DNA of 32,463 nt from positions 1 to 32,463 of the forward strand of contig PEXX01000050.1 of the NCBI GenBank assembly GCA_002778965.1. Reading direction: 5' to 3'. The notes beneath the pieces were generated by a model. The model saw only the letters and a list, made by a program, of their open reading frames with translations, did not search any database and was not told the origin of the DNA. Origin of the DNA: Candidatus Kuenenbacteria bacterium CG08_land_8_20_14_0_20_37_23. Lineage in GTDB: Bacteria > Patescibacteriota > Patescibacteriia > UBA2196 > GWA2-42-15. Positions 3,834 to 32,462 of the stretch are shown here, piece after piece (position 1 is the first letter of the stretch; every line of letters starts with the position of its first letter). A program made the translations under genes and the position numbers.

Positions 3834-3850
3834 CATATGATATTTAAAAT

Positions 3851-6511: not shown

Positions 6512-6540
6512 AATGGGAGATATGGGAGACAGATGTTGAA

Positions 6541-7071: not shown

Positions 7072-7077
7072 ATTAGT

Positions 7078-7106
7078 ATAATATTAAAAATATTATATTT
7101 TGTCAA
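7078..7106 (-). promoter_or_regulatory. rnpB promoter
   Basis: Minus strand TTGACA (7106-7101), 17 bp, TATTAT (7083-7078); predicted start ~7071 matches the 5' end of P1. Confidence 0.75.
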
Positions 7107-7123
7107 TTTTCTATTTTTTTTCT

Positions 7124-8518
7124 ATGAAAAAATCAGAAATTATATTTTCCATAATTCTTGTTCCGTTGGATTACGCGCTTTTAGTGCTAGCAGGCATTTC
7201 GGCATATTTCACGCGTTATTCTCAAATCTATGAAGAAAATATCCGCGAAGTGGTTTTTAGCTTGCCGTTTGGAAATTATCTTAAATATGTTTATGGTTTT
7301 GCTTTTTTGTGGATAATAATTTTTGCTATCTCCGGACTTTTTTCCATGCGTCCCGCGAAAAGTATGTTTGGCGTGTTAAATAAAATTTTTTTGGCTTGTT
7401 CTACGGGAGCTTTGGCTGTAATTGTCGTCTTCTTTTTTTCACGCGAGCTCTTTTCATCGCGCTTTATCGTTTTAGCGGCGTGGGTTTTGAGTATTTTTTA
7501 TACATTTATCGCGCATTTGCTTCTTCGTTATCTGCAAAAAGCTGCTTATAAAAAAGGTATTGGCGTGCACCGCATTGCGCTGATTGGCACTGACAAAACT
7601 AGCAACGAGCTTGCTCTTGCTTTTGCGAGCCAAACCAAGCTTGGCTATAAAATAGTTTGCCAGTCAGCAGGTTTTGATCGCGGGCTTGAAGCGCAAGTGA
7701 GAGAATTAAATGAAAAAAATCTGCTTGATGAAATAATTCAAACTGATTCAAACCTATCTCGCGAAGAAGTCATTAAATTGATTGATTTAGCTAATGAATA
7801 TCATCTTGATTTCAAATACGCGGCAGACTTGCTCGGTGCTCATCGCACGAATATTGATGTAAAAACTATTATTGGAATTCCTATCATTGAAATTAAAAAG
7901 ACCCCGCTTGACGGATGGGGCAGGGTAATAAAGAGAATTTTTGATATTTTTGGATCAATTTTGGCAATGATTGTTTTAGCGCCATTATTTCTTGTTTTGC
8001 CTATAATCATCAGCATTGACTCGCCAGGGCCGGTTATTTACAAAACAAATAGAGTTGGCGCGACTGGAAAAAAATTTTATCTTTATAAATGGCGTTCAAT
8101 GGTAGATGGCGCGGAAAAGATGAAAAAAGAGTTGATGGATAGCAATGAACGAGCTGGAGGGCCTTTGTTTAAAATGGTTAATGACCCGAGAATCACCAGA
8201 GTAGGCAAATTTTTGCGCCGCACAAGTCTTGACGAAATTCCAAATTTTTGGAATGTGTTATTTGGCAATATGAGTCTTGTCGGTCCGCGGCCGCATGAGC
8301 CAGCCGAGGTTGAAAAATATGAAAAGCATCACAAAAAATTGTTGGATATTAAGCCTGGGATTACTGGCATGGCGCAGATTTCTGGCAGATCAACGCTTGA
8401 TTTTGACGAAGAAGCGAAGCTGGATACTTTATATATTGAAACATGGAGCATAAAGCTGGATATTATTATTTTATTTAAAACGCCATTGGCTGTTTTATTT
8501 TCAAAGACAGCAGCGTAA
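7124..8518 (+). CDS. Polyprenyl-phosphate glycosylphosphotransferase (WcaJ/WbaP-like priming sugar transferase)
   Basis: N-terminal TMs and Rossmann-like linker; KRIFDI, YKWRSM, DPRITRVGKFLRRTSLDEIP, MSLVGPRP, KPGITGMAQ. Confidence 0.92.
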   Translation: MKKSEIIFSIILVPLDYALLVLAGISAYFTRYSQIYEENIREVVFSLPFGNYLKYVYGFAFLWIIIFAISGLFSMRPAKSMFGVLNKIFLACSTGALAVIVVFFFSRELFSSRFIVLAAWVLSIFYTFIAHLLLRYLQKAAYKKGIGVHRIALIGTDKTSNELALAFASQTKLGYKIVCQSAGFDRGLEAQVRELNEKNLLDEIIQTDSNLSREEVIKLIDLANEYHLDFKYAADLLGAHRTNIDVKTIIGIPIIEIKKTPLDGWGRVIKRIFDIFGSILAMIVLAPLFLVLPIIISIDSPGPVIYKTNRVGATGKKFYLYKWRSMVDGAEKMKKELMDSNERAGGPLFKMVNDPRITRVGKFLRRTSLDEIPNFWNVLFGNMSLVGPRPHEPAEVEKYEKHHKKLLDIKPGITGMAQISGRSTLDFDEEAKLDTLYIETWSIKLDIIILFKTPLAVLFSKTAA

Positions 8519-8591
8519 GAGCTGGTTGGACAGAGAAGGCATTATCATATCTGCTTACCAATTTTTATCTAAATGTTATTTTTAAAATAAG

Positions 8592-10079
8592 ATGACTTAT
8601 CGCACGAAATATCGTTTGCTTGAAATTTTTCCGGCCGCTATGGTATGGGCTACTTTTATATTGATAATATTGTTGTCATTTTTTCGGCCAATCTGGGCAA
8701 TTTATATTGTGATTGTTTTTGATTTTATTTGGATGTTGCGCATTGTTTATTTTGTTATCTATGTTTTTATTTCATGCAAACGTTACGTCCAAGCCATTAA
8801 AGTGAACTGGCTTGAGAGGCTTAAAAAAATGCAAGGCTATGAAGATATATATCATTTTGTTTTGCTGCCAACCTATCTTGAGCCCAAGGAGGTTATTTAT
8901 GGAACAATGGATGGTTTAGCAAAATCAAAATACGATACGAAGAAAATTATTGTGATTTGGACGCGCGAAGAAAGGGGAGAAACCAGTGAGTATAAAAAAT
9001 GGGCGGAAGATTTAAAGGAAAAATACAAGGATATTTTTTTTGCTTTAGAATTTTATATTCATCCTTTTCCGCAGGCAAATGAATTGCCAGCCAAGGGATC
9101 CAACGCTCGCTGGGCTGCCAAAAAAGCGCAAAAAGAAATTTTAGATGTCAACCATATTGCCTATAATAAAGTCATTCTATCTTCGTTTGACAGTGATACT
9201 ATTCCGCATCCATATTTTTTTGCCTGCTTGAGTTGCATATATTTAGATCAGAAAAATCCAGTGCAGACAGCGTATCAGCCAATAGCGCTGTATATCAATA
9301 ATATTTGGGACGCGCCTTCTTTTAGCAGGGTTGTTTCAAATTCAACCACCTTTTGGCTGATGGCAGAGCTTAGCCGGCCGGATCGTTTAATGACATGTTT
9401 TTCTCATAGTATGAGCTTTGAAGCGTTGGTCTCGGTTGATTTTTGGGATACAACTTGCGTTGTGGAGGATTCAAAAATTTTTTTGCAATGCTTCTATTAT
9501 TATGAAGGAGATTTTACAACAGTACCAATCTACATTCCTGTATCTATGGATACAGTCTTGGGCGATAATATTTGGGAGACAATTAAATACCAATACAAAC
9601 AAATGCGCCGTTGGGCTTCAACTATTGAGCATTTTCCTTATGAAGTATTTAATTATTTTAGGCATAGAGAGATAAGCGCCTGGAAAAAAATCAGATTTTT
9701 ATTTCTTAGACTTGAGGGCGTGTATTCATGGGCCACGGCCCCGATTATTATCACCATACTTGGCTGGCTGCCTTTGCGCGTGGCGTCGCATATGAATATG
9801 ACGCAAGTATTAGTGCAAAAAGCGCCATTTATTTTGGAGAAATTAATGACTTTTTCTATGCTTGGTATGTTGGTTTGCGCGTTTTTGGGGTTGACTTTTA
9901 TGCCAAAAAAACCGTGTTGTAAGCGCGGTTTTTGGCGCTGGCCAATGATCGCGCTGCAGTGGTTATTGGTGCCCATTACGATGGTAGTTTTTGGATCTAT
10001 ACCAGCGATTGAAGCGCAGACAAGACTGGCTTTGGGTAAATATTTAGGGTTTGACGTTACCAAGAAAAGCAGGAGATAA
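8592..10079 (+). CDS. Membrane GT2 glycosyltransferase, processive (cellulose-synthase-like) type
   Basis: LPTYLE, KG, FDSD, VEDS and QMRRW (D,D,D,QxxRW signature); TMs at both ends. Confidence 0.8.
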
Positions 10080-11087
10080 ATAAACGGCCATATATCCATT
10101 GATAAAACTTGGAGCATCCATTTCTTTTTTGTCTTGAGGCTGTAATTTTAATATTTCAAGAAAAGTTTCCCCCCCGCATTTTACAAGGAGTTTTTTGTTT
10201 TCCACGAAAAATTTGCCGGAAGCGATATTTTTTTTTGTCATAATATTGCCATGAATGGCAACTTGCAATAGTTTAATTATATTTTCTTGCTCTATTATTT
10301 TTACGCCTGACGGTTCTTCTTTTCGGCCGGGGCTAATTTTCTTTTTTGGTTGATTGCTTTGGTGTTTTGTTGCTTTGATGAATATTCCAGGCCATTTTAT
10401 GTATGCTCTCCACTGGTTATATATTTCTCCAGATGTTTTATCACAGTTTATAAGCCCATCTTCTTTTCTTATCATTTGTGTATAGGTAGCTTTTTTATGA
10501 TTTTGTTTTTTAGATTTGATTTTGTCGGCAATATATTCTGGCATTATTTTAATTAACAGACCAGCTCCTATTTTGGCCAATTTTTCAGATAATGTTATAA
10601 ATGTGTCTTCATTGTTTATTATTAATTTTTTATTTTTAATTATTTTCCCATGATCCATTTTTCCATCCATTTTTATAATTGTTACTCCGGTTTCCATATC
10701 TCCATTAAGGAGCGCGGTTTGAATAGGGGATGGTCCCCTGTATTTTGGCAAAAGCGAAGGGTGGATATTAAGAGCGCCAAATTTTGGCATGGCTAGGATT
10801 TTTTTTGAAATTATTTGGCCATAATCAGCCGTTATAAAAATATCGGCTGCTGGCAGAATATCATTTTTGAATATTTTTAAGTTTTCTGGTTGAAAAACCG
10901 GAATTTTATTTTTTTCCGCCAAAATTTTGACAAGCGGGGGAGTGAGAATTTTTTTTCTGCCAATAGGCTGATCAGGTTTGGTAACAACGCCCAAGATAGA
11001 AAGTTTAGCCTCAACTAGTTTGTTTAAAATAACAGCGGCAAAATCCGCTGTGCCGAAAAATATTATTTTCGTATGTGCTTGATCCAT
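10044..11087 (-). CDS. fmt: Methionyl-tRNA formyltransferase
   Basis: [38 protein letters not shown]; directly downstream of def. Confidence 0.95.
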
Positions 11088-11570
11088 TTATTTTAAAATT
11101 CTATCAATAAATAAAACGCCATCCAAATGGTCTATTTCGTGTTGCAAAATTCTGGCCGGCATTTTGTCAAATTTTTGTCTTATCTTTTCTCCTTGCTTGT
11201 TTAAATATTCCACCAATATTTTTCTGTGTCTTTTAACTTTGCCAAAAATTCCAGGAATTGATAGACACCCTTCTTCCATGGTACTTGTTAGCAATGATTT
11301 TTTTAGTATTTTCGGATTGATAAATATTTCAATTTTATCGCCATTTACGCTGCTTGACGTTGCAAGCGTATTGACAGCTATGACTCTTATCAAACGTCCG
11401 ACTTGTGGCGCAGCCAAGCCAATGCCGTCGGACGCGCGCATTGTTTTTTCTAAGTTTTTAAAAAAATTTTGCATTTCACAAGAAATAATTTTGTCAATTA
11501 CAATTTCCTCTGATTTTTGGCGCAGAGTTTTCTCGTTATTGTGGATAGTTAGAATCTTTAAAATGGGCAT
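11088..11570 (-). CDS. def: Peptide deformylase
   Basis: GIGLAAPQVG, EGCLS, QHEIDHLDG; ATG at 11570 lies just after the priA stop. Confidence 0.96.
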   Translation of the reverse strand: MPILKILTIHNNEKTLRQKSEEIVIDKIISCEMQNFFKNLEKTMRASDGIGLAAPQVGRLIRVIAVNTLATSSSVNGDKIEIFINPKILKKSLLTSTMEEGCLSIPGIFGKVKRHRKILVEYLNKQGEKIRQKFDKMPARILQHEIDHLDGVLFIDRILK

Positions 11571-11571
11571 A

Positions 11572-13458
11572 TTAATCCGAGAGTGTTTTCGCATCAACAT
11601 CAATCAACCAGTCATTCGGTACATATTTGACCAAAGAGTTGAAGTTCTCAAGTTTTTCTAATTTTAAAATTATGTTAAATTTATATTTACCTCTGATTTT
11701 CTTGCGTGTAATAGGCATTGGAGAGCTCAAGCTTATTTTTTTGTTGTTTGCCAAAATTGTTTTTATTTTTGAATATACTTTATTGGCATTGTCCGCGGCT
11801 TTCTTTTCCGACTTATTAAGAATGCTTAATTTTATCAAACTAACAAACGGCGGGTAGCCAAAATTTTTTCTTAAGTTAAGTTCTTCACTATAAAATATCT
11901 TTGGATTTTTCTGGTAGATTGATTTTATAATAAAATTATTAGGAGTGAAAGTTTGGATAATAACTTTAGTATTTTCATGAGTTGAAGTCAAAATTTTGGT
12001 CAGTAAAGCATAAGCTATCGCATTGGTATTAAATTCGCTATGTTGCCACAATTGGTCCGCATTGATTATGGCAATCAGGCCTGTTTTTTGCCAGTCTATT
12101 TTATCCAAAGCAAATTCAGTACCCAAAATAACTGATGATTCGCAACTGCCGATTGGCAACTTTTGGACTGTTTTATCAATTTTAGTAATTTTTATGTCAG
12201 GCAAAATTTTTTTTAGATTTTTTTCAATTTTTTCTATGCCAAGACCGCTTGATTTGAAATTCGGTCCTTGGCATTTTGGGCAAAAAGGCGGCAGTTCATT
12301 CTTATTATTACAGTGGTAACAAATTAATTTGTCATTTTTGTATTTTATCAAAGGCATGCCGCACTCCGTGCAGATAAATGTGTAGTGGCAGTCTTTGCAG
12401 ATAGTATTGGTTGATTCGCCTTTTTTATTAATAAACAAAAAAGTTTGTTTTTTATTTTGAATAGTTTTCTTAATTTCCACTTCTAATTTTTCGCTAATAA
12501 ATGAATAGTTTTTTTTTGTGAGTTCATTGTTCAGGTCTTGAATAATAATATTTTTTTGTGTTTTTGCGCTTATCGACTCCTCTTTGCCTTGTCGTGGTAA
12601 ATTGTGTTTTTGTGATTTATAGTAGTTCTCCATTGATGGCGTCTGGCTGGATAAAACGACTTTGCCACCGGCAATGTCAACTAATTTTTGAGCTGCGAGT
12701 CTTACATCATATCTTGGATTCATATCATATTGCTTGTGATTTATAGAATCTTCCTCGTCTATAATTATCGTTTCCAGTTGCGTGAATGGATAAAAGATTG
12801 CCGAACGTGTGCCAATAAAAATTTTGGCATTGCCGGATAAACATTCATTCCATAGTTTTAGCTTTTCCGGTTGTTTTAGCTTGCCGTGTATTTGGCTGTA
12901 TTGTCTTGATTGGAGTCTAATATTTTCAGCCATGGTATAAATCTGATAAACCCTTGGCACAATGATTAAGAGTTGTTTTTTATTTTTTTGGGCCAGCCTT
13001 TGATAATATTTATTTCTCTCCCCATAATTTTTCCACCAAAAATATGCCAATTTTATTTTTTTTATTTTTTTATCTGTTAGCCGTTCTTTTAGGCCGCGGT
13101 CAGTTTGTTTTTTTATTTCGCGCATTTTCGTGTCGCTTGGCAGATTATGACGCACGAATAGAGAAGCTGAAATGAAGCAATATTTAGCGAGTTCTAAAAA
13201 TAACTTGATTTGATTTTCAGTAAACAGCGCTTCAAAGGAAACTAATCCAATGATGCTTTTAAGATATTGCGGATTGAGATTTACTTTTTCTGAATTCAGA
13301 TTAATTTTAGATACTACGCCAGCGGCAATTGAATTGCGCAAGGGGATTTTTACCAATTGTCCGACTTTGATTTTATGCGCCAAATCAGCAGGCACTTTGT
13401 AAGTCAGAACCGACAACTGTCTTGGCATTTTTTTGGTTGGAATTACGTCAATTAGCAT
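11572..13458 (-). CDS. priA: Primosomal protein N' (PriA), helicase motifs degenerate
   Basis: N-terminal 3'-binding domain (LTYKVP...GQLVKIPL), GTRSAIF, IIIDEE, PRYDVR, four CxxC pairs, GLGIEK, IQT, YPPF; priA-def-fmt synteny. Confidence 0.9.
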   Translation of the reverse strand: MLIDVIPTKKMPRQLSVLTYKVPADLAHKIKVGQLVKIPLRNSIAAGVVSKINLNSEKVNLNPQYLKSIIGLVSFEALFTENQIKLFLELAKYCFISASLFVRHNLPSDTKMREIKKQTDRGLKERLTDKKIKKIKLAYFWWKNYGERNKYYQRLAQKNKKQLLIIVPRVYQIYTMAENIRLQSRQYSQIHGKLKQPEKLKLWNECLSGNAKIFIGTRSAIFYPFTQLETIIIDEEDSINHKQYDMNPRYDVRLAAQKLVDIAGGKVVLSSQTPSMENYYKSQKHNLPRQGKEESISAKTQKNIIIQDLNNELTKKNYSFISEKLEVEIKKTIQNKKQTFLFINKKGESTNTICKDCHYTFICTECGMPLIKYKNDKLICYHCNNKNELPPFCPKCQGPNFKSSGLGIEKIEKNLKKILPDIKITKIDKTVQKLPIGSCESSVILGTEFALDKIDWQKTGLIAIINADQLWQHSEFNTNAIAYALLTKILTSTHENTKVIIQTFTPNNFIIKSIYQKNPKIFYSEELNLRKNFGYPPFVSLIKLSILNKSEKKAADNANKVYSKIKTILANNKKISLSSPMPITRKKIRGKYKFNIILKLEKLENFNSLVKYVPNDWLIDVDAKTLSD

Positions 13459-13478
13459 ATTGTAAATAAAGTTTACAG

Positions 13479-14834
13479 CTATTTGACGATTTTAACTGTT
13501 TCGCCGTCGTCATGCAAGGCAAGTACTTTATTACTGACACGAATTACGTTTTTGAATTTGTAGCCCAGTCCCAAGAAAATTTCTTCAGAATCAAATGGCC
13601 TTTTGAGTCCATCGGAGATGACATAGACCGTAGGACTATTTTCTCCGACAACAAGTTCACCATCTCTAAGTATAACAGCGCTTCCTGTATCGTATTTTTC
13701 CAGTTCTTCTGGTAAAACCGGAGTAATTTTTTTTGAACTGTAGTAAATTTTTAGTATTTCTCTGGCTATAATAGGTTGTTTGACGCCATTGGCGACATAA
13801 TATACGCCGCCTGTGGTTTTGTCTTGAAGCAAGGCGCCGGTGGGATAAGCATTTTTAGCTGTGATAGCTGTGCCTATTTTGTATGGGAAAATATCTTTGC
13901 TGGCAACGGAGATTATTTCTTCAGGGTTAAAGCCTAATAGCCGGAAAGTTTCTTGCGAATCAATTGGCCGCAGAGTATCATCATCAAGCAAGTATATGCC
14001 ACCCGTCGGAATCTGAAGCAATGAGTAGTTTGGATGTTCAATTGGAGAGCCAGTTGGATATTTGTCTAGATCGGCTGGAGTGGCGGGCAGGACAAGATCA
14101 AAAGATGGATATCTGGAAAGATAAGCTGATTTTGAACGAAAAGGATGTTTTACGTTGTTTTTGATAAGCCAAATTCCGCCATCCTCCGTGTTTTGCAGTA
14201 GCGATCCGTTAAAGTAAGATATTGAAAACCATTTTTGCCAAATATTAAAAAGGTTTTCATTGCCATGCAGATGGGGTGTGTAAATATAGAGGCTGCGAGT
14301 AGCATGGTTTTTTATGACTATTTTAGTATTATCAATAGTATATGTTTCGCCAATTTGATATTTGAATTCGCTTGGATTGTCAAAATAGTAGCGCGTGCCG
14401 CCTGTTCCCCAATCTACTTGATTTGAAAAACCTTTGTATTTTTGTACTTTTAAGTCTGTTTTTTTACAGTCATCGCATATTCCATAGCCAGTTGCCCAAT
14501 CATATTGATCCTTGTCTGGATGATCATCCAGCACCAAACTTTGTTCTTTTTGCAAAAGCGCTAAGATGTATTGAGGATTTATTTTATGCGTTCTTGCAGA
14601 ATCATAGATTATTTGCGATGCTGTTATTTTTATGTTTGGATCAACGTAAGACGCTAAATTGCTGTTTTTGCTGGTTAGAAAAGATTGTATTTGCTCCATA
14701 TTCATACTTTGATAATTTGTCAGTTCATGATCTGAAATTATGAAATTAGGATCAAATCCGGCTAGCGTTTGCAATGAAGAATATATGAAAATTAGAAAAA
14801 TTACAATTAGATTTAAAAATATTTTGTATTTCAT
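13479..14834 (-). CDS. Secreted protein: lysozyme-like/hemagglutinin-annotated N-terminal domain plus four ~60-aa repeats
   Basis: Signal peptide; FDPNFIISD...INPQYILALLQKEQSLV...ATGYG...YKGFSNQV...ATRSLYIYTPH; repeats of form GxLLQ...GGVYY...KxP...Y.TG. Confidence 0.6.
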   Translation of the reverse strand: MKYKIFLNLIVIFLIFIYSSLQTLAGFDPNFIISDHELTNYQSMNMEQIQSFLTSKNSNLASYVDPNIKITASQIIYDSARTHKINPQYILALLQKEQSLVLDDHPDKDQYDWATGYGICDDCKKTDLKVQKYKGFSNQVDWGTGGTRYYFDNPSEFKYQIGETYTIDNTKIVIKNHATRSLYIYTPHLHGNENLFNIWQKWFSISYFNGSLLQNTEDGGIWLIKNNVKHPFRSKSAYLSRYPSFDLVLPATPADLDKYPTGSPIEHPNYSLLQIPTGGIYLLDDDTLRPIDSQETFRLLGFNPEEIISVASKDIFPYKIGTAITAKNAYPTGALLQDKTTGGVYYVANGVKQPIIAREILKIYYSSKKITPVLPEELEKYDTGSAVILRDGELVVGENSPTVYVISDGLKRPFDSEEIFLGLGYKFKNVIRVSNKVLALHDDGETVKIVK

Positions 14835-15028
14835 AAATGCGTCTATTTTTTAATTTTTATTGGCAGTTTTATTATATCAGATTTTTTAAAAATAAGAAGT
14901 GCAGTAGTTTTATGTTGCCAGTAATAGATAATAAATGTTAATATGTTAATGGATTAATTGGCATACGCAAAATTTGTTTTTATGATTTTTGTGTTATTGG
15001 CGTAGCTTTGGATATTAATTGTGATTTT

Positions 15029-15910
15029 ATGGTTTCTATTATTATCACCTCTAAAAATGAGGGAAAATCCATTGGTCAAGCGATTCATGCTTTTTTAAAG
15101 CAGGATTTTCATCAGCATACTTTTGAAATAATCGTTGTTGCTCCTGACGAAGAGACTCTGCAGGGTGCGCAAGCGCTTGGTTCTGATTTGGTGACAACTA
15201 TAAAAGACACTGGAGTTGGCAAAGTTCAAGCGCTTAATCTGGCGATCAGCAGAGCCAATGGAAATATTTTGATCTTTTCAGACGGCGATGTGGTTGTTGG
15301 CAATTTAGCGGTGGCCGCGTTGCTGGCCAAATTAGAGACTGGCGTTGTGAGTGGGCGCCCAATAGCAGAGAAAAATAGCGTTAATAAATATATTTTTTGG
15401 CAAAATTGTCTTTTTGACAGCGCGCATAAGATGCGCTTGCGCAGAAGCGCGGAGAACAAGTTTATAACGCTGTCAGGATATCTTTTCGCATGCAAGAAAG
15501 AGTTGCTGCGCGGATTTGTTTTTCCGCAAGATATTTTGACAGAAGATGAATACTTGTCATACTATCTTTTTAATCGCAGCATCAGGATAGCTTATGCTCC
15601 GCTAGCTAAAGTTTTTGTTAAAGCGCCTAAAAATTATTCCGATTGGTTAAAGCAAAAAGTAAGAACGCTTGGCGGCTCGTATCAGATTCCTGTCGGTTGG
15701 AAAAAAAATATCGCTATGCGATCGTTTAGCAAGGAAAGCGCGCATGTTTTTTCTTTGCTCTCAAATTATGGCAAAAATTTCAGGCAACAGTACTGGCTGC
15801 AACTGTTATTTTTTGCGCGGCTGTACGCGTGGATAAAGGCTTTTTTTTTAGTTAAAATTTTAGAAAAAAACAGCAGGTCTTTGTGGATAAGAGTTATCAG
15901 CACAAAATAA
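15029..15910 (+). CDS. GT2 family glycosyltransferase
   Basis: VSIIITSKNE, GKVQALN, FSDGD, TEDE, KQKVR. Confidence 0.85.
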   Translation: MVSIIITSKNEGKSIGQAIHAFLKQDFHQHTFEIIVVAPDEETLQGAQALGSDLVTTIKDTGVGKVQALNLAISRANGNILIFSDGDVVVGNLAVAALLAKLETGVVSGRPIAEKNSVNKYIFWQNCLFDSAHKMRLRRSAENKFITLSGYLFACKKELLRGFVFPQDILTEDEYLSYYLFNRSIRIAYAPLAKVFVKAPKNYSDWLKQKVRTLGGSYQIPVGWKKNIAMRSFSKESAHVFSLLSNYGKNFRQQYWLQLLFFARLYAWIKAFFLVKILEKNSRSLWIRVISTK

Positions 15911-15928
15911 TAATTTTATGCTATTTAT

Positions 15929-15956
15929 AAAATTAGCCAATGTTAGCTAATTTTTT
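15929..15956 (+). terminator. Intrinsic terminator
   Basis: AAAATTAGC-caatgtta-GCTAATTTT followed by TT. Confidence 0.55.
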
Positions 15957-15960
15957 AATA

Positions 15961-15989
15961 TTGACAAAATAAATAGATTATATTAGTAT
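15961..15989 (+). promoter_or_regulatory. greA promoter
   Basis: TTGACA, 17 bp, TAGTAT. Confidence 0.6.
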
Positions 15990-16022
15990 GTCTAGCATTG
16001 CTTGTGATTTATTTTAAAATAT

Positions 16023-16493
16023 ATGGATAACAATCAATTATATTTAACTGCGGAAGGTTTAGAAAAACTTAAAAAGGAACTTGATTTTTTGATACACACA
16101 AAAAGAAAAGAAGTTGCTAATCGCATTGAATCAGCTAAAGAACTTGGAGATTTAAGCGAAAACGCCGAATATTCTGATGCCAAAGACGAGCAAGCATTTT
16201 TGGAAGGCAGAATTTCAGAATTAGCAAATGTGGTGCGCCATGCTGTTATTATTAAAAATTCCAGCGCTAAAAAATATTTTGTTGATATTGGTTCTATTGT
16301 TGAAGCCAAAAATGAGAAAAACGATATTAAGACTTACAAGATTGTTGGCAGGCAAGAGGCTGATCCGGGCGTTGGTTTTATTTCTAATGAATCTCCAATC
16401 GGCAGAGCATTTCTTGGGAAAAGAGTTGGCGACACAGTGGAATTTCAAGCGCCAAAAGGCAGTGTTAAATTTGTTGTGGCCAGTATCAAGTAG
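16023..16493 (+). CDS. greA: Transcription elongation factor GreA
   Basis: YLTAEG, GDLSENAEY, ISNESPIGRAFLG. Confidence 0.96.
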   Translation: MDNNQLYLTAEGLEKLKKELDFLIHTKRKEVANRIESAKELGDLSENAEYSDAKDEQAFLEGRISELANVVRHAVIIKNSSAKKYFVDIGSIVEAKNEKNDIKTYKIVGRQEADPGVGFISNESPIGRAFLGKRVGDTVEFQAPKGSVKFVVASIK

Positions 16494-16534
16494 CAAAATT
16501 TTCCTCTTGCGTATAAATATGCTATAATTAAAAT

Positions 16535-17419
16535 ATGCGACGAGAGGAGCAAAATTTAATCAGCGGACAAATACCGGAGTGGAAGATGAAACTGTCGTAT
16601 TTTTACGTTAACAATAAAACTCTAATGAAGCGGGGTTTTGTTTTTTTGTTCTTTCTTTTGGATGTAATCATTGTTTTTCTTTTTGGGAGAATATTTCTCA
16701 ATTATCAAGCATTGTCCGAAGCCAATGACACGCAAATGCGATTGATGTCTGTCAACTTAATCAACCATGAGATAGTTAAACTGATGATTGAACCAGACCC
16801 ACTAATAATAGGCAATACATATTCAATAAAGACGAAGGATCAATACTATGATTTATTGGCGCTTGCGCAAAATAGCAGTAAAAATTGGGCTATAGTTGAG
16901 ATAGGGTATACTTTTATTGTAAATAAGAAGGAGCTTGGCAGCAGAAGTACTTTTATTTTGCCAAATAGCAGCAAATATTTGACAGCATTTAATGTTCTTG
17001 GCGGCCAAGACGCCGAGTGTAAAATTTTATATACAAACTGGAAAAGAACTACGGATTATACGTTGCTTAGCTATAAAGACAGCATCAAGTCGTCTGGCGC
17101 GAATTACGCTTATTCTAGTTCTAATTCTTTGGGCGGGCAAGCCGCATTCACGCTAATCAATGAAAGCCCCTATGGTTTCTGGGAAGTAGGATTTGAGATA
17201 GTTCTCTTTAATCGGTATCAAGAGCCGATAGGGATCAATTATTTATCTGTGGATAAGTTGATGGCGCGTGAGACAAGAGATATTAAATTTGGATGGATAA
17301 ACGGTCCAAGCGCGCCTGTCGCCAAAATAGAAGTTTATCCGGAAATCAATTTTTTAAACAGCGATGACATTATGAAAATAGATGCGCCGATTGGCTCTCC
17401 ACCGGGGAGAGATAATTGA
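16535..17419 (+). CDS. Hypothetical membrane-anchored protein with two beta-rich (Ig-like) domains
   Basis: 294-aa ORF with one N-terminal TM and a beta-strand pattern; TGn-TATAAT 6 nt before the ATG. Confidence 0.6.
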   Translation: MRREEQNLISGQIPEWKMKLSYFYVNNKTLMKRGFVFLFFLLDVIIVFLFGRIFLNYQALSEANDTQMRLMSVNLINHEIVKLMIEPDPLIIGNTYSIKTKDQYYDLLALAQNSSKNWAIVEIGYTFIVNKKELGSRSTFILPNSSKYLTAFNVLGGQDAECKILYTNWKRTTDYTLLSYKDSIKSSGANYAYSSSNSLGGQAAFTLINESPYGFWEVGFEIVLFNRYQEPIGINYLSVDKLMARETRDIKFGWINGPSAPVAKIEVYPEINFLNSDDIMKIDAPIGSPPGRDN

Positions 17420-17436
17420 TTTTAAAGGCAATAACC

Positions 17437-17458
17437 AAACGAGCCCTAACTCGTTTTA
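17437..17458 (+). terminator. Possible intrinsic terminator
   Basis: AAACGAG-ccctaa-CTCGTTT followed by a T-rich tail. Confidence 0.4.
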
Positions 17459-17500
17459 TTATTATTTTAGATATAAAATTTCGCGCTTCGCTATATTAAT

Positions 17501-18604
17501 ATGAATATTGCAAGTTATTCAATTAATTTAAAGAAGTTTGATTTTATGCTTTTTGCTCCTGTTTTGCTACTGGTTATTTTCGGGCTTTCATCTATTTACA
17601 GTATGACGTTGAATGTGGAAAATCCTGATCTGACTTTGTTCAACAAGCAAATTATTTTCGCGATAATTGGATTCGTACTTTTGTTTTTTTTTAGTTTTTT
17701 TGACTATCGCTTTTGGAAGAATTATACTGTTTTTTTATACTTGTCCGCGAATATTTTTTTGGCGGCTGTTTTATTTTTCGGACAAACAATCAGAGGAACT
17801 AGCGGATGGTTTAATTTTTGGGGAATTAGTTTCCAGCCGGTTGAATTTGCAAAATTCAGTTTAGTTATAGCTTTAGCGCATTTTTATAATCTGAAATATA
17901 AAAAATTGGGTTTGACCAGTTTATTTTTTTTTAGCGGATTGATTGCCATATTACCGATTGCGCTCACAATTTTTCAGCCAGATTTCGGATCGGCTTTTAT
18001 TTTAATTATTATTTGGTTCGGTTTTTTTATTCTTTTTGGTATCAAAAAAAAGCAGTTTTTATATTTTTTGGCATTAATTGCGACGGTCGCGCTCATTCTT
18101 TGGAATTTTATTTTATTTGATTATCAGCAGAATAGAATTTTGGTTTTTGTTGATCCGGGGCGTGATCCTTTGGGTAGTGGATATAATGTCCGCCAATCAA
18201 TTATCGCGGTCGGATCTGGAAAATTTACTGGCCGAGGTTTGGGGCTGGGGACGCAAAGCCAATTGCGTTTTTTGCCCGAAATAGCCACTGATTTCATTTA
18301 CGCCAATATTTCAGAAAGTCTTGGTTTTTGCGGTGCGGCCATGGTGGTTGTTTTTTTTACTTATTTTTTCGCAAAGCTATTATTAATAATCAAAAAGGCA
18401 AAAGATGATTTTGGGGCATATTTGGTTTATGGTTTTTTGATAATATTTTTTTCGCAAACAGTCATTAATATCGGCATGAATATCGGACTTTTTCCAGTGG
18501 CTGGATTGCCATTGCCGCTGGTAAGTTATGGCGGTTCGTTTCTAGTGGTGTGCCTTGTCGGCATAGGCATTGTTGAAAGCGTAAGCATAAGCGAGAAGCA
18601 GTAA
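17501..18604 (+). CDS. rodA: SEDS peptidoglycan glycosyltransferase RodA
   Basis: FQPVEFAK, QPDFG, DPLGSGYNVRQSIIAVGSG, FLPEIATDFI, GLPLPLVSYGGS; about 10 TMs. Confidence 0.9.
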   Translation: MNIASYSINLKKFDFMLFAPVLLLVIFGLSSIYSMTLNVENPDLTLFNKQIIFAIIGFVLLFFFSFFDYRFWKNYTVFLYLSANIFLAAVLFFGQTIRGTSGWFNFWGISFQPVEFAKFSLVIALAHFYNLKYKKLGLTSLFFFSGLIAILPIALTIFQPDFGSAFILIIIWFGFFILFGIKKKQFLYFLALIATVALILWNFILFDYQQNRILVFVDPGRDPLGSGYNVRQSIIAVGSGKFTGRGLGLGTQSQLRFLPEIATDFIYANISESLGFCGAAMVVVFFTYFFAKLLLIIKKAKDDFGAYLVYGFLIIFFSQTVINIGMNIGLFPVAGLPLPLVSYGGSFLVVCLVGIGIVESVSISEKQ

Positions 18605-18650
18605 GCGACAAATCTAATGCAATGTCAAGGCGCATAGAAGCATATTAAAT

Positions 18651-18679
18651 TTGACATTTGTTTTATTGTTATTTATACT
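18651..18679 (+). promoter_or_regulatory. Sigma70-type promoter
   Basis: TTGACA, 17 bp, TATACT. Confidence 0.7.
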
Positions 18680-18702
18680 AAAAGTAATGCAAAAATAAAA
18701 AT

Positions 18703-19059
18703 ATGCCGTCAATTATAAATATATTAAAGAAGGAAATAATTATTTATTGCCCGCTTTGCAATGGGAGTTACAGTCCTAGAGACATTGCCACCATTGAACA
18801 GACAGGCAACGTCGCGCTGATTCACAGTAAGTGCCCAAAATGCGCTGGTTCTGTTTTATCTCTTTTATACAAGGATTTGTTGGGTATTACTCTTCTTGGA
18901 ATGGCGACTGATATGGACTTTAATGATGCGCTAAGATTGAAAGATGCTGACTATATCAACGAAGATGATGTTTTGGAAATTTATCAAATGTTAAATCCAG
19001 TTGATTTAAATAACAGGGCAGAATCAATAAAACCAATTGGACAGAGTTGGAATTTATAA
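18703..19059 (+). CDS. Small zinc-ribbon hypothetical protein
   Basis: CPLC...CPKC pair and C-terminal INEDDVLEI helix. Confidence 0.65.
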   Translation: MPSIINILKKEIIIYCPLCNGSYSPRDIATIEQTGNVALIHSKCPKCAGSVLSLLYKDLLGITLLGMATDMDFNDALRLKDADYINEDDVLEIYQMLNPVDLNNRAESIKPIGQSWNL

Positions 19060-19079
19060 ACAATACCGCGATTATATAT

Positions 19080-27310: not shown

Positions 27311-28033
27311 ATGCGTATGAACAAACTCGTAATTGACATTGAAACAGTCGGAAAAAACATGGAGGACACTGACGATATTGCCAAGGACTATTTTCGCGAG
27401 TGGGCGGAGAGTTCGGCAAAGGAAGAAAAAGATATCGCAGTTGAGCTTGAAAAAATCGAGGAGGGTTTCAGTTTTTCGCCGTTGACAGCGGAAGTTGTGT
27501 GCATTGGAATGCTGAATCCTGTCACGAACAAGGGCAGGGTTTATTATCAGGAGCCCGGGAATGAAGGTAAAAAATTTAATGACAATGGCATTGAATTTGA
27601 AGCAATGGCAGAGCCGCGAATGCTTGAAAAATTTTGGGCGGATATTTTAAGCTATGTAGAGTTTATCACTTTCAATGGCCGCGGTTTTGATATTCCTTTT
27701 TTAATGATAAGATCAGCTGTCCATAAGATAAAACCAACGAAAAATTTAATGTCCAACCGCTATTTAAATAGCCAATTTAGCGGCTCAAGGCATATTGATC
27801 TGCAGGATCAATTTCAATTTTATGGCGCTGTTTGGGGCAAGCGCGGTTATAATCTGCATATGTTTTGCCAAGCTTTCGGCATTATCAGCCCAAAAAGAAA
27901 AGGAGTTTCCGGCAGCCACGTTAAGGAGATGTTTCAGGCTAAAAAATATGAGGACATTGCCCGCTATAATGTGGATGATTTATATGCCACAGCCGCGCTT
28001 TATAAATATTGGCAAGAATATATTGACGTTTAG
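27311..28033 (+). CDS. Stand-alone DEDDy 3'-5' exonuclease-like protein (PolB-exo/RNase H-like)
   Basis: DIET (ExoI), FNGRGFDIPFL (ExoII), HIDL, YNVDD (ExoIII). Confidence 0.85.
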   Translation: MRMNKLVIDIETVGKNMEDTDDIAKDYFREWAESSAKEEKDIAVELEKIEEGFSFSPLTAEVVCIGMLNPVTNKGRVYYQEPGNEGKKFNDNGIEFEAMAEPRMLEKFWADILSYVEFITFNGRGFDIPFLMIRSAVHKIKPTKNLMSNRYLNSQFSGSRHIDLQDQFQFYGAVWGKRGYNLHMFCQAFGIISPKRKGVSGSHVKEMFQAKKYEDIARYNVDDLYATAALYKYWQEYIDV

Positions 28034-28038
28034 TAAAA

Positions 28039-28073
28039 CAAAAATTCATACCAATAGAAGGTATGAGTTTTTG
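28039..28073. terminator. Intrinsic terminator
   Basis: CAAAAATTCATACC-aatagaa-GGTATGAGTTTTTG. Confidence 0.65.
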
Positions 28074-28111
28074 GATTTGAAAAAAACAACCGAAAATGAT
28101 ACTTTTAAAAC

Positions 28112-28765
28112 ATGAAAATATCAGCCATTGTGCCGGTCTATAATGAAGATCAACGCGAATTAAACATCTTGTTGCAAGAACTAGACGGTTTTGTCGATAG
28201 TGTCATAATTGTTGATGACGGCTCTATTCCGCGATTGGATTTTAAAAATTACACGCTTCTAAGACACGCAATCAATCGCGGACAGGGAGCAGCCCTGCAG
28301 ACAGGCACGGATTTTGCCATTGCTCACGGCGCCAATATTATTGTTCACTTTGACGCTGACTGTCAGCACAGGCCAGTGGATATTGTTGCTTTAATCAAGC
28401 CCATTCAAGATGGTCAAGCAGATTTTGTTTTTGGCTCCAGGTTTCTTGGCGAAAAAAATGACATGCCATGGAGCAAAAAATATTTTATCCATCCGCTTGC
28501 CAGGATTATCAACCTCATTTTTACGGGTCTGAAGCTTTCCGATGTTCATAATGGTCTGCGCGCTTTTAGTTCAAGTGTCGCGTCTCGCGTTCATCTATCC
28601 CAGGATAGAATGGCACATAATACCGAATATTCTTATTTGGTTAAAAAAAATAAAATTAAATATTCCGAAGTACCAGTTAGAGTAATTTACCATAGATACG
28701 GTCAGACCGCTATTGGGGGTTTTAAAATATTGAAAGAATTATTTTTAGGAAAATTATTAAAATAA
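28112..28765 (+). CDS. GT2 polyprenol-phosphate glycosyltransferase (DPM synthase-like)
   Basis: IVPVYNE, VDDGS, NRGQGAAL.TG, FDAD.QH, GSRF, SD.HNGLR. Confidence 0.88.
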   Translation: MKISAIVPVYNEDQRELNILLQELDGFVDSVIIVDDGSIPRLDFKNYTLLRHAINRGQGAALQTGTDFAIAHGANIIVHFDADCQHRPVDIVALIKPIQDGQADFVFGSRFLGEKNDMPWSKKYFIHPLARIINLIFTGLKLSDVHNGLRAFSSSVASRVHLSQDRMAHNTEYSYLVKKNKIKYSEVPVRVIYHRYGQTAIGGFKILKELFLGKLLK

Positions 28766-28769
28766 ACAT

Positions 28770-29108
28770 ATGTCTTTGATACAAATTCTCGCGCTTGTTT
28801 TTTGCCTTTTCGCCTTATGGCGCGTCATCCTGAAATTTCGTCGCCAAGAGCTCAAAATCACGGAATTTTTCATGTGGCTTATTTTTTGGCTGGCAGTCGG
28901 TGTGGCTTTTGTGACACCAGAGTCTTTGACCAGATTAGCTAACGTGCTTGGTATTGGCAGGGGCGCGGATCTTGTCCTGTATGTCGCGGTGGTGGTCGTC
29001 TTTTATCTTATGTTCCGTATTTTCGTGCGCCTAGAAAACATGGAAAGAAATATTACCAAAATCGTCAGAAAAGACGCGCTAAAGGATAAAGACAGCCAGA
29101 ACGAATGA
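28770..29108 (+). CDS. DUF2304 family small membrane protein
   Basis: Three TMs, LA..LGIGRGADLVLY, LE..ITKIVR..AL; typical position after a DPM-like GT2. Confidence 0.85.
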   Translation: MSLIQILALVFCLFALWRVILKFRRQELKITEFFMWLIFWLAVGVAFVTPESLTRLANVLGIGRGADLVLYVAVVVVFYLMFRIFVRLENMERNITKIVRKDALKDKDSQNE

Positions 29109-29343
29109 TACAAAAAACAACCCATTTTACACAATAACTTTTTAAAAAAAGATACAGTGAAAAATAAGGGTTGTTTTTTGGTTTGGTTTAATTTTTTTAA
29201 TTTTTTATTTAATTCAATAATAGACTTTTTGTTTTAGTTTGTATTCGATCCCGCCAGTACGGGACAAATACATTATCGTACAAAGTCTATGTGAAAACAA
29301 AAATTAAGTTGCTGATTTACGCAAACGCGTAAATCCTAATAGG

Positions 29344-29382
29344 AGTCAGACCATCGGGGAATTTTTCCCCGACGATCTGACT
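29344..29382. terminator. Hairpin downstream of the C25 gene, likely terminator
   Basis: AGTCAGA-cca-TCGGGGAA...TTCCCCGA-cga-TCTGACT; no clear U tract on the minus strand. Confidence 0.45.
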
Positions 29383-29402
29383 TACCCGTCAAAAAAGTCA
29401 TC

Positions 29403-32400
29403 TTAACGTAACAGCATCATCTTCATCGTTTTGCTGTAATCGCCAACTTCCAGACGGTAGAAGTAGACGCCACTTGTCAGGTCGCTAGCATCAAAAGTAA
29501 CTTTGTAGGTATTGGCAGTCTTGTGTTCATTAACCAAATCCGCTACTTTCTGACCAAGAACATTGTAAACACTGAGTTTTACTATGCCAGCTTTAGCAAT
29601 GGTGTAATTGATCAATGTTTCCGGATCGAATGGATTCGGATAGTTTTGGAATAATGAAAATTTGACCGGCACAGCAGTTTCAGCCGACGCCCAAACTTTA
29701 ATGCGGGCTGAAGCGCTCAATTTTTCATCAGCATTGATCCGGTAACTGTCCAGTTTCAATTCACTCACCTTTCCGTAGTTGCCAATGACCGAAAATAAAA
29801 TTTCCAAATATTCGCCGTGTTCTTTTAACGGTTTCAATGAAAAACCGGTAACTAATAATTTCCCAGATTCAACTTCATTCTGATAAACTTCAAAATTGCT
29901 GCCGTAATCGATTTTATTTATCCGGTCAAATTTCAATGCGCCTACATCAAAGGTCAGACAAATATCAAACGAATAAATCATCTGCTCTTTTTCAGCAACG
30001 ATTGGAATGCGGACAGTTTTTCCGGGCTGTGCCTCAGTATCTTTTAAATAGGAATATTTCATATTTGTCGAGGCAGCTTTGGCTAAATTTCCCGAATACG
30101 ACCAGTTGCCATCGACGTCACCCAGAATGACAGCATTAAAATCTTGATTCGATTCATCGCAACTCAATGCTGGATAAGATCGCTTATTCGGATTAAATTT
30201 CCAATCACCAATATAACAACTGGAACCGGGAGAAATTCCAACTGCATACTTGGCGATTAATGATGCGTCATACATCAGGACCGCCCCGTTTTTATCCACA
30301 TCCGCTGCAATTCTCTGTTCATCGCTGACATCCGGCAGCAGCCCCACAGCAATTCTTGCTGCCAAAGCAGCATCATATCCGAGGATACAGGGCTCGGTGA
30401 CAGGGGTGGTTTTCTCAGCCGAAAGAGTATAACTTGCTCCGTCTTGTAATGAATTGAAACTGAATGTGCCACTGGTTCCGGTTGTTTGCGATTGCGATGT
30501 ATCCCCGCTGATACTGACCACAGAATGGCTGAGCGGATTTCCCGAGCTAAAATAAGCGACATTGCCTGATAAAGTATGCGCAGCAACCGGATTTAATCCC
30601 GGTCTGTATAGCGACGGATCGCCGTACAAATTGAAATCAAACATATTTTGCCAGCCCACATAGCCCCAGGAACTGTACATAAAATGCGTTGAATAATAAA
30701 CTTTGGAATTAAACAGCGCATCGCCAACCTTATCGTCGCGATTAATTAAATAATAAAAGAAGTAATAGTCCAGAGAGGCGTTGCCCCCATGGTTTTGGTG
30801 GCACCAGCCAATGCTGTACCAAGATAACCGGCTCGAAGCCACAATTCCGGATGATCCGCGTTTAATCATTTCTTTGCCTAAGTTTGTGCTTTCAGGCCAA
30901 CCATTGTTACAGGAACAAGCAAAAATAACTGGTGAATAAGTATTACTCAATGATCCGCAATCGCCGGCAGAAATCATCGCATCAAAACTGAGTTCTCCAG
31001 CACTGGTCTCTGGTACGCCGTCTCCATCATCAGAACGCCACCATTTTCGGTAAGCTGAAGTTTTGCTGCCGTGCGCCCACCAGTTGATCGTGCCGTATTG
31101 TCCATCAGACCAGTCATTAACGACATTATTGTGAGTCAAGGATTTTGTGCAGGAATAGGCACTGGCATCCAAACCGGCTTTTTCATACATGGTTGTGTAA
31201 CTACCGCTGATGTTTTGAATCAAAACTTTATGAATCTCCATCAGAGTAGCGCCGTCGGTTTTGGCGTAACCGCGGTTATCTTCGTTAGTGTAATTGATCA
31301 TTGCCCCTAGTAACAAAGCATTTTTTTTCCACGATCCTCGGTTACTTTCAAAATTGATTAATTTGTTACATATCATGGAAACGGTGGAAGCATCGCTCCA
31401 GGGAATTCGTCCCACGATAACTTCCGGGACCCAATCAACATTGTCCTGACCATATTCACCGTAACGACTGTCTCCATCTGAATTCCAGTTGCCGGTTAAA
31501 TCAGCATAATAATAATCTGTTGGCGTATCTTCGCTGGTTGTGTCTGGTTTTGGACTGCACATGCGCATCGGAATATCTGAAACATCACCAATGATCAGCA
31601 CATACTCAATTCCGCACTCTGAATATTTATCAATTAAAAAATTCCTTATTTTTTGCGGCAGATCCGAGCCGCTGTAATTACTGTTAATCCAGGTCACTGT
31701 TACAACGTTTACCGAATAGCCAACGCTCTGCTTCCAATTCACGAATGACGTTACTGTATTTTGTAAAGCATCGGTGGTAATAATAACGTAATCATAGTAT
31801 GATGAACTGCTGTTAGGTTCAAAATACTTTTGATACCATTGTTTTGCTTCATCGTAATTATAAATCAAAATAGAAGCATTTCTGCCGGTCGGACTGTCTG
31901 CTAAATTTTGTTTTAAGGGAGAATATTTTTGTTTTGCAGCCGTTAAAGTATATTCAACTCTTATTGACGCGCTTTTAAAATAGACCAATTGTTGCGTAAC
32001 CGGATTGTAAGCAAAAGGTGTGAAATTTATGCGGACAAATTGGAATTGGCGATAGTTGCCCTCCCCGTCAAAAATTACAGCTTCCTGCGGATAAAAAGAA
32101 TCGGTAGAATAAGCAACTCTTTTATTCTCCCGAAAAATCCGCACTGCTTCATCGGACAGGACTGGATCGCCATCCATCGGGAGCATCATGGGAGCAGGCA
32201 CAATCCTATACTTACCATCAAGTAATTCTTTGTCCAAACTTACAATATTTATCGAATTGAATTCAGCGCCCGGCGGAACCGCTACCAAAAAAGTCTTGCT
32301 GGGGAGCATCGGTTTTCCCGGTGTCAGGGTGTTGCCAAAATTGTTCATTCGAATTTCCTGGGAGCTATCAGGCAGGTTGACTATTTCATAATTTTCGGCT

Positions 32401-32462
32401 GTCAAATCAACTGTCAATTGTTCAGCTTTTGCGTTGGAAGCCAATACGCATAACAAGACGAG
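29403..32462 (-). CDS. C25 (gingipain-family) cysteine peptidase with propeptide, dockerin-like and cohesin-like modules and T9SS-type C-terminal domain; start lies beyond the window
   Basis: Signal-peptide end (LVLLCVLASNAKA); propeptide GKPMLP; YVIIT, YVLIIGD, TDYYY, VGRIP; catalytic AHG and CSC; FNLYGDP; ADVDKNGAV...DA; QNYPNPF...YNVLGQ...SGVYFYRL...KMMLLR. Frame is open to the window end. Confidence 0.88.
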   Translation of the reverse strand, partial: LVLLCVLASNAKAEQLTVDLTAENYEIVNLPDSSQEIRMNNFGNTLTPGKPMLPSKTFLVAVPPGAEFNSINIVSLDKELLDGKYRIVPAPMMLPMDGDPVLSDEAVRIFRENKRVAYSTDSFYPQEAVIFDGEGNYRQFQFVRINFTPFAYNPVTQQLVYFKSASIRVEYTLTAAKQKYSPLKQNLADSPTGRNASILIYNYDEAKQWYQKYFEPNSSSSYYDYVIITTDALQNTVTSFVNWKQSVGYSVNVVTVTWINSNYSGSDLPQKIRNFLIDKYSECGIEYVLIIGDVSDIPMRMCSPKPDTTSEDTPTDYYYADLTGNWNSDGDSRYGEYGQDNVDWVPEVIVGRIPWSDASTVSMICNKLINFESNRGSWKKNALLLGAMINYTNEDNRGYAKTDGATLMEIHKVLIQNISGSYTTMYEKAGLDASAYSCTKSLTHNNVVNDWSDGQYGTINWWAHGSKTSAYRKWWRSDDGDGVPETSAGELSFDAMISAGDCGSLSNTYSPVIFACSCNNGWPESTNLGKEMIKRGSSGIVASSRLSWYSIGWCHQNHGGNASLDYYFFYYLINRDDKVGDALFNSKVYYSTHFMYSSWGYVGWQNMFDFNLYGDPSLYRPGLNPVAAHTLSGNVAYFSSGNPLSHSVVSISGDTSQSQTTGTSGTFSFNSLQDGASYTLSAEKTTPVTEPCILGYDAALAARIAVGLLPDVSDEQRIAADVDKNGAVLMYDASLIAKYAVGISPGSSCYIGDWKFNPNKRSYPALSCDESNQDFNAVILGDVDGNWSYSGNLAKAASTNMKYSYLKDTEAQPGKTVRIPIVAEKEQMIYSFDICLTFDVGALKFDRINKIDYGSNFEVYQNEVESGKLLVTGFSLKPLKEHGEYLEILFSVIGNYGKVSELKLDSYRINADEKLSASARIKVWASAETAVPVKFSLFQNYPNPFDPETLINYTIAKAGIVKLSVYNVLGQKVADLVNEHKTANTYKVTFDASDLTSGVYFYRLEVGDYSKTMKMMLLR

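Follow-up and report, generated by a model that had tools for sequence, protein, structure and literature searches.

The contig PEXX01000050.1 of Candidatus Kuenenbacteria bacterium CG08_land_8_20_14_0_20_37_23, analysed here over its whole length of 32,463 nucleotides (the window; contig C24 of the assembly), ends in a gene for a cysteine protease of the C25, or gingipain, family. The minus-strand open frame of 1019 codons runs from 32462 to a stop codon at 29403-29405 and continues past the contig end. A second contig, C6 (4926 bases), ends in the exact reverse complement of the final 64 bases of the window and supplies the AAGGAGG ribosome site, the ATG codon and the start of the signal peptide. 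The 1019 codons of the window and the first 13 on C6 together encode a protein of 1032 amino acids (P0002), and a large protein collection holds an identical (100%) protein of 1032 residues, with the same start, on a single contig of 8833 bases.

Results

Domain architecture of the protease

The features of the locus are listed in the table, in which residues are numbered along the 1019 codons of the window. The Pfam scan assigns a latency prodomain (Propeptide_C25, 4e-13, 49.3 bits, cut-off 22) and a catalytic domain (Peptidase_C25, PF01364, 5e-55, 187.6 bits, cut-off 23) whose profile is covered almost wholly, at positions 1-372 of 374; a genome-wide profile search scores the same domain at 190.7 bits. 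At the C-terminus, Por_Secre_tail (PF18962) matches residues 941-1015 (3e-10, 40.5 bits, cut-off 27). The NCBIfam model TIGR04183, which describes the type-A sorting domain of the type IX secretion system (T9SS), scores 47.4 bits over a cut-off of 23, its match ending three residues before the last codon. The motifs QNYPNPF, SGVYFYRL and KMMLLR are found in this C-terminal domain (CTD), hereafter also called the tail. All 19 aligned homologues share H464-G465 and C518. The HGS stretch aligns, in a weak sub-alignment of the Protein Data Bank (PDB) profile search, with GHGSET at chain positions 211-213 of RgpB (1cvr), whose histidine is taken to be the catalytic one. Frame, Pfam, NCBIfam and alignment thus agree with the original prediction, made from the letters of the window, of a secreted C25 peptidase of more than 1017 residues with intact His-Gly and Cys motifs and a tail typical of the Fibrobacteres-Chlorobi-Bacteroidetes (FCB) group.

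Between the catalytic domain and the tail the Pfam matches are weaker: a sub-cut-off CarboxypepD_reg (24.4 bits), a dockerin (PF00404, 18.9 bits, below the cut-off of 22.9) and a cohesin (PF00963, residues 806-872, 22 bits, below the cut-off of 24.1). Matches to PF00404 and PF00963 are confined to the protease gene itself and no partner module was found elsewhere in the genome, so the dockerin-like and cohesin-like modules may bind one protease molecule to another, or may bind something foreign.

The N-terminus, MFLKKVRDVRVFALVLLCVLASNAKA, read from C6 and P0002, resembles a Sec signal peptide by eye. Within its n-region the stretch VRDVRV is kept among four orthologues that are 56-82% identical (P0002, P0003, P0005 and P0007), while the hydrophobic core varies (window end and L013, 4828-4926). 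Such conservation is unusual in a signal peptide and may reflect a conserved nucleotide element at the 5' end of the gene.

Table. Features of the protease locus and its left border in the window
Feature	Position	Strand	Evidence
C25 (gingipain-family) zymogen protease gene	29403..32462	-	Frame, Pfam, C6 overlap, P0002
Remainder of Sec-type signal peptide, LVLLCVLASNAKA	32424..32462	-	Likely cleavage after AKA, judged by eye
Propeptide_C25 latency prodomain, residues 32-173	31944..32369	-	Pfam; profile and Foldseek matches to RgpB pro-domain
Peptidase_C25 catalytic domain, residues 225-618	30609..31790	-	Pfam, alignment, PDB profile match, Foldseek
His464	31071-31073	-	Alignment of homologues
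Cys518	30909-30911	-	Alignment of homologues
Ig-like beta-sandwich (CarboxypepD_reg-like), residues 630-684	30411..30575	-	Sub-cut-off Pfam match; strands in model
Dockerin-like helical module with DVDKNG and GDVDGN loops, residues ~700-790	30093..30365	-	Sub-cut-off PF00404; weak PDB dockerin matches; helices in model
Cohesin-like beta-sandwich, residues 806-923	29694..30047	-	Sub-cut-off Pfam match (22 bits); Foldseek cohesins
Type-A T9SS CTD (Por_Secre_tail), residues 941-1016	29415..29642	-	Pfam, NCBIfam, seven-strand sandwich in model
Inverted repeat directly 3' of the protease stop, likely terminator of the imported gene	29343..29383	-	Read from sequence; missed by consensus scan
Native terminator hairpin of the DUF2304-like gene	29110..29180	+	19- and 17-nt arms, both identical in G003
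Small membrane protein (DUF2304-like), native flank, left slot border	28770-29108	+	Orthologues 56-81% identical in same-family genomes
GT2 glycosyltransferase, native flank, left slot border	28112-28765	+	Orthologues 56-81% identical in same-family genomes

Structure model and relatives of the fold

An AlphaFold model built on the 19-homologue alignment is of moderate quality (mean predicted local distance difference test, pLDDT, 69.8) and is confident in the prodomain, the dockerin-like helices (pLDDT 83-89), the cohesin-like sandwich and the seven-strand tail (about 85-89). A Foldseek search matches the cohesin-like part to cohesins with template modelling (TM) scores of 0.6-0.71 and root-mean-square deviations of 2.6-4. 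The prodomain is related to that of RgpB by profile (4ief_A, 3.7e-5) and by fold (4ief_C, TM 0.64). The catalytic fold matches RgpB 1cvr (Foldseek E 4.4e-11, TM 0.52) and Kgp 4rbm (TM 0.46). A phmmer search of the full protein against the PDB sequences returned nothing at E <= 0.001, and a profile search was needed, in which RgpB 1cvr matched with E = 2.7e-6.

The protease shares with the gingipains RgpB and Kgp of Porphyromonas gingivalis (1cvr, 4ief, 4rbm) the C25 fold, the prodomain, the Ig-like domain after the catalytic domain and the type-A CTD, with TM scores of 0.46-0.53 for the gingipain catalytic chains. It differs from them in its sequence, which is 12-19% identical in structural alignments, in its added dockerin-like and cohesin-like modules, in that no haemagglutinin/adhesin domains are seen in it, and in belonging to a cell without a T9SS. 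PorU, the C25-family T9SS sortase (6za2), gives the top Foldseek E-value (4.6e-12) and likewise joins a C25 fold to a CTD, but its TM score is only 0.17-0.18 across an alignment of 1251 columns. We rejected a reading of the protease as a PorU-type sortase: in the NCBIfam search a PorU-specific model was absent from the list, which at E <= 0.01 held three CTD-based families alone, and within the order a C25 gene occurs in one of 24 genomes, whereas 22 of them have CTDs. Since CTDs are common and a single genome has the protease, it cannot be the general CTD-processing enzyme of the order.

Closer relatives are proteases of about 1035 residues in FCB metagenome-assembled genomes (MAGs) of KSB1, Calditrichaeota-named and related bacteria (L014, L015, L016, L033, P0018). 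These are collinear with the window protease in their propeptide, C25, Ig, dockerin/cohesin-like and CTD layout, are 50-64% identical over the first 640 residues and 63-73% in the catalytic domain, and fall with it into one well-supported clade. Unlike it, they reside in genomes of 4.5-4.7 Mb with SprA and PorV, and their CTD is of a longer 'WDG.D..G' type, 39-46% identical to that of the window.

The protease lies between native genes

Beyond the protease stop codon stand the GT2 and DUF2304-like genes, read from the opposite strand. Clear orthologues of the GT2 gene exist in every one of the 24 genomes of the order. Native terminator sequence runs on for about 75 bases beyond the DUF2304-like gene, the last native one. 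We compared the site in eight loci of the same family, two of which end before it. Five (G002, G004, G005, G006 and G008) present an empty site, in which the DUF2304-like gene is followed within 7-142 bases by an orthologue of the first C6 gene; the order there is pyrH, GAPDH, exonuclease-like, GT2, DUF2304-like and C6 orthologue (50-58% identity). In the sixth (G003) the slot is occupied, in the same orientation, by a 569-codon papain-family (C1) protease with a Por_Secre_tail of its own (L120, G003:C14, 2840-4546, minus strand), after which all four C6 genes follow in order. The slot appears to exchange cassettes of a protease and a tail. The composition of C6 is ordinary for the genome (z = -1.3).

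The original prediction had raised the concern that the contig might be chimeric. The synteny answers it: the two native flanks are adjacent in five relatives, and a sixth holds another CTD gene in the slot. A chimera would need two independent misjoins that by chance recreate the native gene order. Among the listed sequencing runs from groundwater and aquifers, 23 of 24 hold all or part of 28000-30600, 20 of 24 at least half of its sampled words and six at least 0.97 of them, a measure of co-presence and not of contiguity. The window contains no tRNA gene, and the borders of the slot show neither a repeat nor a mobile-element signature. In the AT-rich spacer between the native terminator and that of the imported gene lies a small GC-rich hairpin, cccgccagtacggg, at 29240-29262.

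Origin of the gene

A search of the large protein collection with residues 1-640 gives 1013 relatives at E <= 1e-10. The identical entry is followed by P0003 and P0004, both 82% identical, of which P0004 is entered as 'C25 family cysteine peptidase [Patescibacteria group bacterium]'. Next, at 52-64%, are proteins that match in length and layout, one of them named Calditrichaeota, and then Zixibacteria, WOR-3, TA06 and Thermoplasmatales. Among genomes sampled at one per species, the best 77 loci are titled 'Cytophagia' MAG, KSB1, Zixibacteria, Gemmatimonadota, Thermoplasmatota and others; five carry just the title 'bacterium', and Patescibacteria appears in no title. The top match in this set is 56% identical in its best segment and about 63% over the first 655 residues. 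In a quick maximum-likelihood tree of 48 rows, for which no root was inferred, the query groups with P0003 and P0004 in a clade (SH-aLRT support 100) inside a clade of 19 rows (SH-aLRT 100) that includes the KSB1, Calditrichaeota-named and 'Cytophagia'-titled sequences.

No full-length match to the protease was found in 60 relatives, and the gene is present in 1 of the 24 genomes of the order. In the phylum sample, 1 of 400 other genomes (G381) encodes a C25 protein, an unrelated copy. Because of this distribution we take the transfer to have run from the FCB group into the candidate phyla radiation (CPR). The nested clade, the species-representative matches and the CTD matches all bear out the horizontal acquisition from FCB bacteria that had been proposed, and by this sequence evidence the gene is an import from a KSB1/Calditrichota-type FCB lineage.

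The G381 protein (L168, G381:C7:1-2739) was rejected as an orthologue, as it stands at the start of a contig of 66.6% GC and has no tblastn similarity to the window protease; in a genome of 0.7 Mb it may represent a contaminant contig or a separate import. Two very large frames of 1401 and 1460 residues in two CPR genomes of the same class (L007, G048:C6:8789-9880, and G053:C1:102827-103876) are distantly similar (27-30%) to the propeptide and the start of C25. They belong to a different C25-like lineage of the CPR, possibly a native one.

The composition of the gene is compared with that of 443 frames of at least 200 residues. GC content is 42.5% against 38.1 +/- 3.4% (rank 39), GC at third codon positions 42.2% against 35.8 +/- 5.0% (rank 44), and lysine 5.6% against 9.0 +/- 2.8% (51st lowest). 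Set by tetranucleotide distance among 446 windows of 3 kb, the protease would come 3rd (z = 3.3). The gene is thus richer in GC and poorer in lysine, as had been judged by eye, and each shift amounts to about 1.3 standard deviations, a moderate and not an extreme departure from the mean of the genome.

The tail has a history of its own

Identity to P0003 falls from 74-86% in the prodomain and catalytic domain to 63-78% across the middle modules and 48% in the tail. P0003, P0004 and the FCB orthologues have a common, longer type of tail. When the tail alone was searched against the large protein collection by a word index, it was 86, 85, 82 and 78% identical to the tails of a family of proteins of about 740 residues, whose single phylum-named member is from Calditrichaeota (P0135, 72%). 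Contigs with 75-77% identical tails (L092-L097; metagenome tail matches are biased by the search pattern YSKTMKMM) carry histidine-biosynthesis operons and GH31 and S8 genes, and their neighbouring genes are unlike those of the window genome. Given 48% identity to the orthologue against up to 86% to the 740-residue family, the tail has evidently been replaced by one from another Calditrichota-type gene. The data fit a replacement before the transfer as well as one after it.

The CTDs of CPR relatives are 48-58% identical to that of the window. A CPR-type CTD was considered as the source of the swapped tail and rejected, in view of the up to 86% identity to the Calditrichota-type family and of the non-CPR contigs that bear the similar tails.

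A CPR genome without a T9SS

The genome comprises 788,340 bases in 55 contigs and is rated 95.9% complete and 0.96% contaminated; those of the sampled relatives all measure 0.6-2.1 Mb. RF1, encoded in the window, is nearest to proteins named Candidatus Kuenenbacteria (73, 68, 68 and 72%) and then to 'Patescibacteria group' proteins. In this 95.9%-complete genome the profiles of SprA, PorV, GldM and GldL have no match. Across the order neither SprA nor PorV exceeds the cut-off in any of the 24 genomes, with one weak match at 3e-4, and both are missing from two CPR relatives whose tails number 5 and 9. As the standard controls include no T9SS organism, we used as positive controls three FCB genomes (2.8-4.7 Mb) with the closest protease homologues; all three have SprA above the cut-off and two have PorV above it. 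Omp85 and LpxC were likewise not found in the genome, by models that match 7 and 5 of 14 control genomes; judged by this gene content alone, the cell probably has no outer membrane. A CPR-like genome lacking the T9SS parts that were sought, as first suspected, is what the RF1 neighbours and the missing SprA, PorV, GldM, GldL, Omp85 and LpxC describe.

Tails are a habit of the order

The original prediction held such a CTD to be foreign to Patescibacteria, a premise that is not borne out as it was put. TIGR04183 exceeds its cut-off in 22 of the 24 genomes of the order, up to nine times per genome, and in 12 of 201 genomes of an evenly drawn phylum sample, the window genome being counted in both. 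From the relatives we gathered 41 tail-bearing frames and scanned 40 against Pfam, leaving out L159, which contains masked letters. Por_Secre_tail is present at E <= 1e-5 in 38 of the 40, and the other two match only the related FlgD_ig fold. Peptidase or wall-hydrolase domains occur in nine of them (M23 five times, CHAP, C39-like, M6 and papain); other bodies are FG-GAP, BNR and PQQ propellers, beta-helix, carbohydrate-binding modules, BACON and PKD. Most of the tail-bearing frames begin with an MKK-hydrophobic N-terminus. Several tail proteins are full-length orthologues between the two main families of the order (e.g. 58% over 779 residues), and in 6 of 7 such pairs conservation over the final 80 residues equals or exceeds that of the remaining protein; L142/L159, the sole pair with a lower tail score, probably owes it to the masked letters. 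Given the 22 genomes and the proteins common to families, the CTD is a lineage habit and not a lone import.

The window protease resembles these proteins of the order, such as the papain-CTD protein in the slot of G003 and those of M23-BACON-CTD layout, in its general plan, where a Sec-type N-terminus leads into the body, which is an enzyme or a propeller, and a Por_Secre_tail closes the C-terminus. It differs in that the bodies are unrelated and the CTDs only as similar as given above, and in that several of the order's proteins are common to two families, whereas the window gene is a lone recent import.

Six of the tail proteins (L150, L153, L155, L158, L161 and L141, in genomes G010, G007, G005, G013, G004 and G015), of 917-1359 residues, have an N-terminal M23 or CHAP domain followed by BACON, PKD or fn3 domains and the tail. 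They look like candidate weapons against the cell wall of a host.

Discussion

We consider it fairly probable that a complete C25 protease gene moved from a diderm of the KSB1/Calditrichota type into a variable slot in the genome of a Kuenenbacteria-like CPR bacterium, where it is now resident. The transfer would have carried the prodomain, both the dockerin-like and the cohesin-like module, and a type-A T9SS tail. A Sec signal peptide would move the zymogen across the single membrane, and in a cell without an outer membrane Sec export alone would place it outside. Loss of the prodomain would then activate the His/Cys endopeptidase, which could cut external or host-surface proteins, and this proteolysis might feed a cell that cannot make amino acids, or aid it in attacking a host. 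In such a cell the tail would be no T9SS signal; it may instead hold the enzyme at the surface. Because such tails are retained and conserved on many secreted hydrolases across the order, they probably serve there in some way that does not depend on a T9SS.

Several points weigh against this reading. Export, activation and substrate are all steps that we infer. The model of the catalytic domain is partly poor, with pLDDT below 50 at 380-408, 540-565 and 595-612, and Cys518 is proposed as the catalytic cysteine from its invariance, not from alignment to a solved structure. The name of the order is drawn from the names of RF1 homologues. The protease sits between native neighbours and is not a chimera, yet its contiguity is deduced from assembly and synteny, not from reads. 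The window CTD is not of a CPR type, because it is closest to non-CPR CTDs and distant from those of the CPR relatives. Lastly, as one genome of the 24 has the gene and its foreign composition is kept, the import could be a recent one that does the cell little good.

A rival view is that the gene is a neutral passenger, a recent import with an inert tail and no role in the CPR cell, and will be lost. The restriction to one genome, the composition that has not been ameliorated and the varying content of the slot among relatives all agree with it, but the frame of 1032 codons is intact and equipped with a ribosome site, a signal peptide and a terminator-like hairpin of its own, and all residues invariant across 19 sequences are retained. 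The 82% orthologue P0004, named as from a Patescibacteria group bacterium, suggests persistence through divergence, and at least half of the sampled words of the locus recur in 20 of the 24 listed runs. We give this view a small but appreciable chance. Far less credible, indeed very improbable, is a chimera of assembly or binning, in which an FCB protease was misjoined to CPR DNA. The gene does lie at a contig end, is atypical in composition and has its closest homologues in FCB genomes; against this stand two independent contigs that bridge native DNA to both ends of the gene, native flanks that adjoin in five related genomes and enclose another CTD gene in a sixth, the full-length protein on one contig of 8833 bases, and the native terminator about 75 bases beyond the last native gene.

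The tails could also be a host-directed address tag, such that hydrolases exported from the CPR cell by Sec (M23, CHAP, papain and the C25 protease of the window) are docked or anchored on the surface of an FCB-type host by the PorV shuttle and PorU sortase of that host. An order without a T9SS of its own keeps and conserves its tails, and the proteins that bear them include many wall hydrolases and proteases, enzymes fit for an attack on another cell. The tail now found on the window protease, moreover, replaced an earlier one and reaches 86% identity to those of the 740-residue family (Calditrichaeota P0135, 72%), related contigs of which carry histidine-biosynthesis operons. Of the three genomes with the closest protease homologues, all possess SprA and two have PorV over the cut-off. 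However, in the known pathway the T9SS tail is recognised on cargo that comes from the periplasm and passes through SprA, we know of no host for the Kuenenbacteria-like lineage, and the tails of CPR relatives, at 48-58% identity to that of the window, reveal no single host-matched type. We regard this use of the tails as unlikely; that the tail swap reflects matching to a Calditrichota/KSB1-type host, the tails being labels aimed at it, is equally doubtful.

The transfer from a KSB1/Calditrichota-type diderm that we favour would be an example of gene flow into a Kuenenbacteria-like CPR bacterium and so suggests a candidate partner lineage. Few environmental CPR bacteria have a known host or a well-described way of acting on other cells. 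Full-text searches of the literature turned up no paper on T9SS sorting domains or gingipain-family proteases in the CPR; supplementary annotation tables, which lie outside that search, may list such domains. The one function known for this sorting domain depends on a machine and a membrane that are missing from these cells, and yet an entire order of the CPR retains it. Either it serves a second purpose that has yet to be described, or it acts on the machinery of another organism.

The family of about 740 residues whose tails most resemble that of the window protease has a conserved synteny in L092, L096 and L097, where its gene stands between a Mur ligase gene on one side and nth with the histidine-biosynthesis operon on the other. 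Outside the tail its members show no Pfam domain, bar a weak hint of CBM_56. On a metagenome contig of 610 kb (L100) at least eight tail-bearing frames with near-identical '...YSKTMKMMLIK' ends lie within 17 kb (about 2279-19078), and this array is a dense set of T9SS cargo genes.

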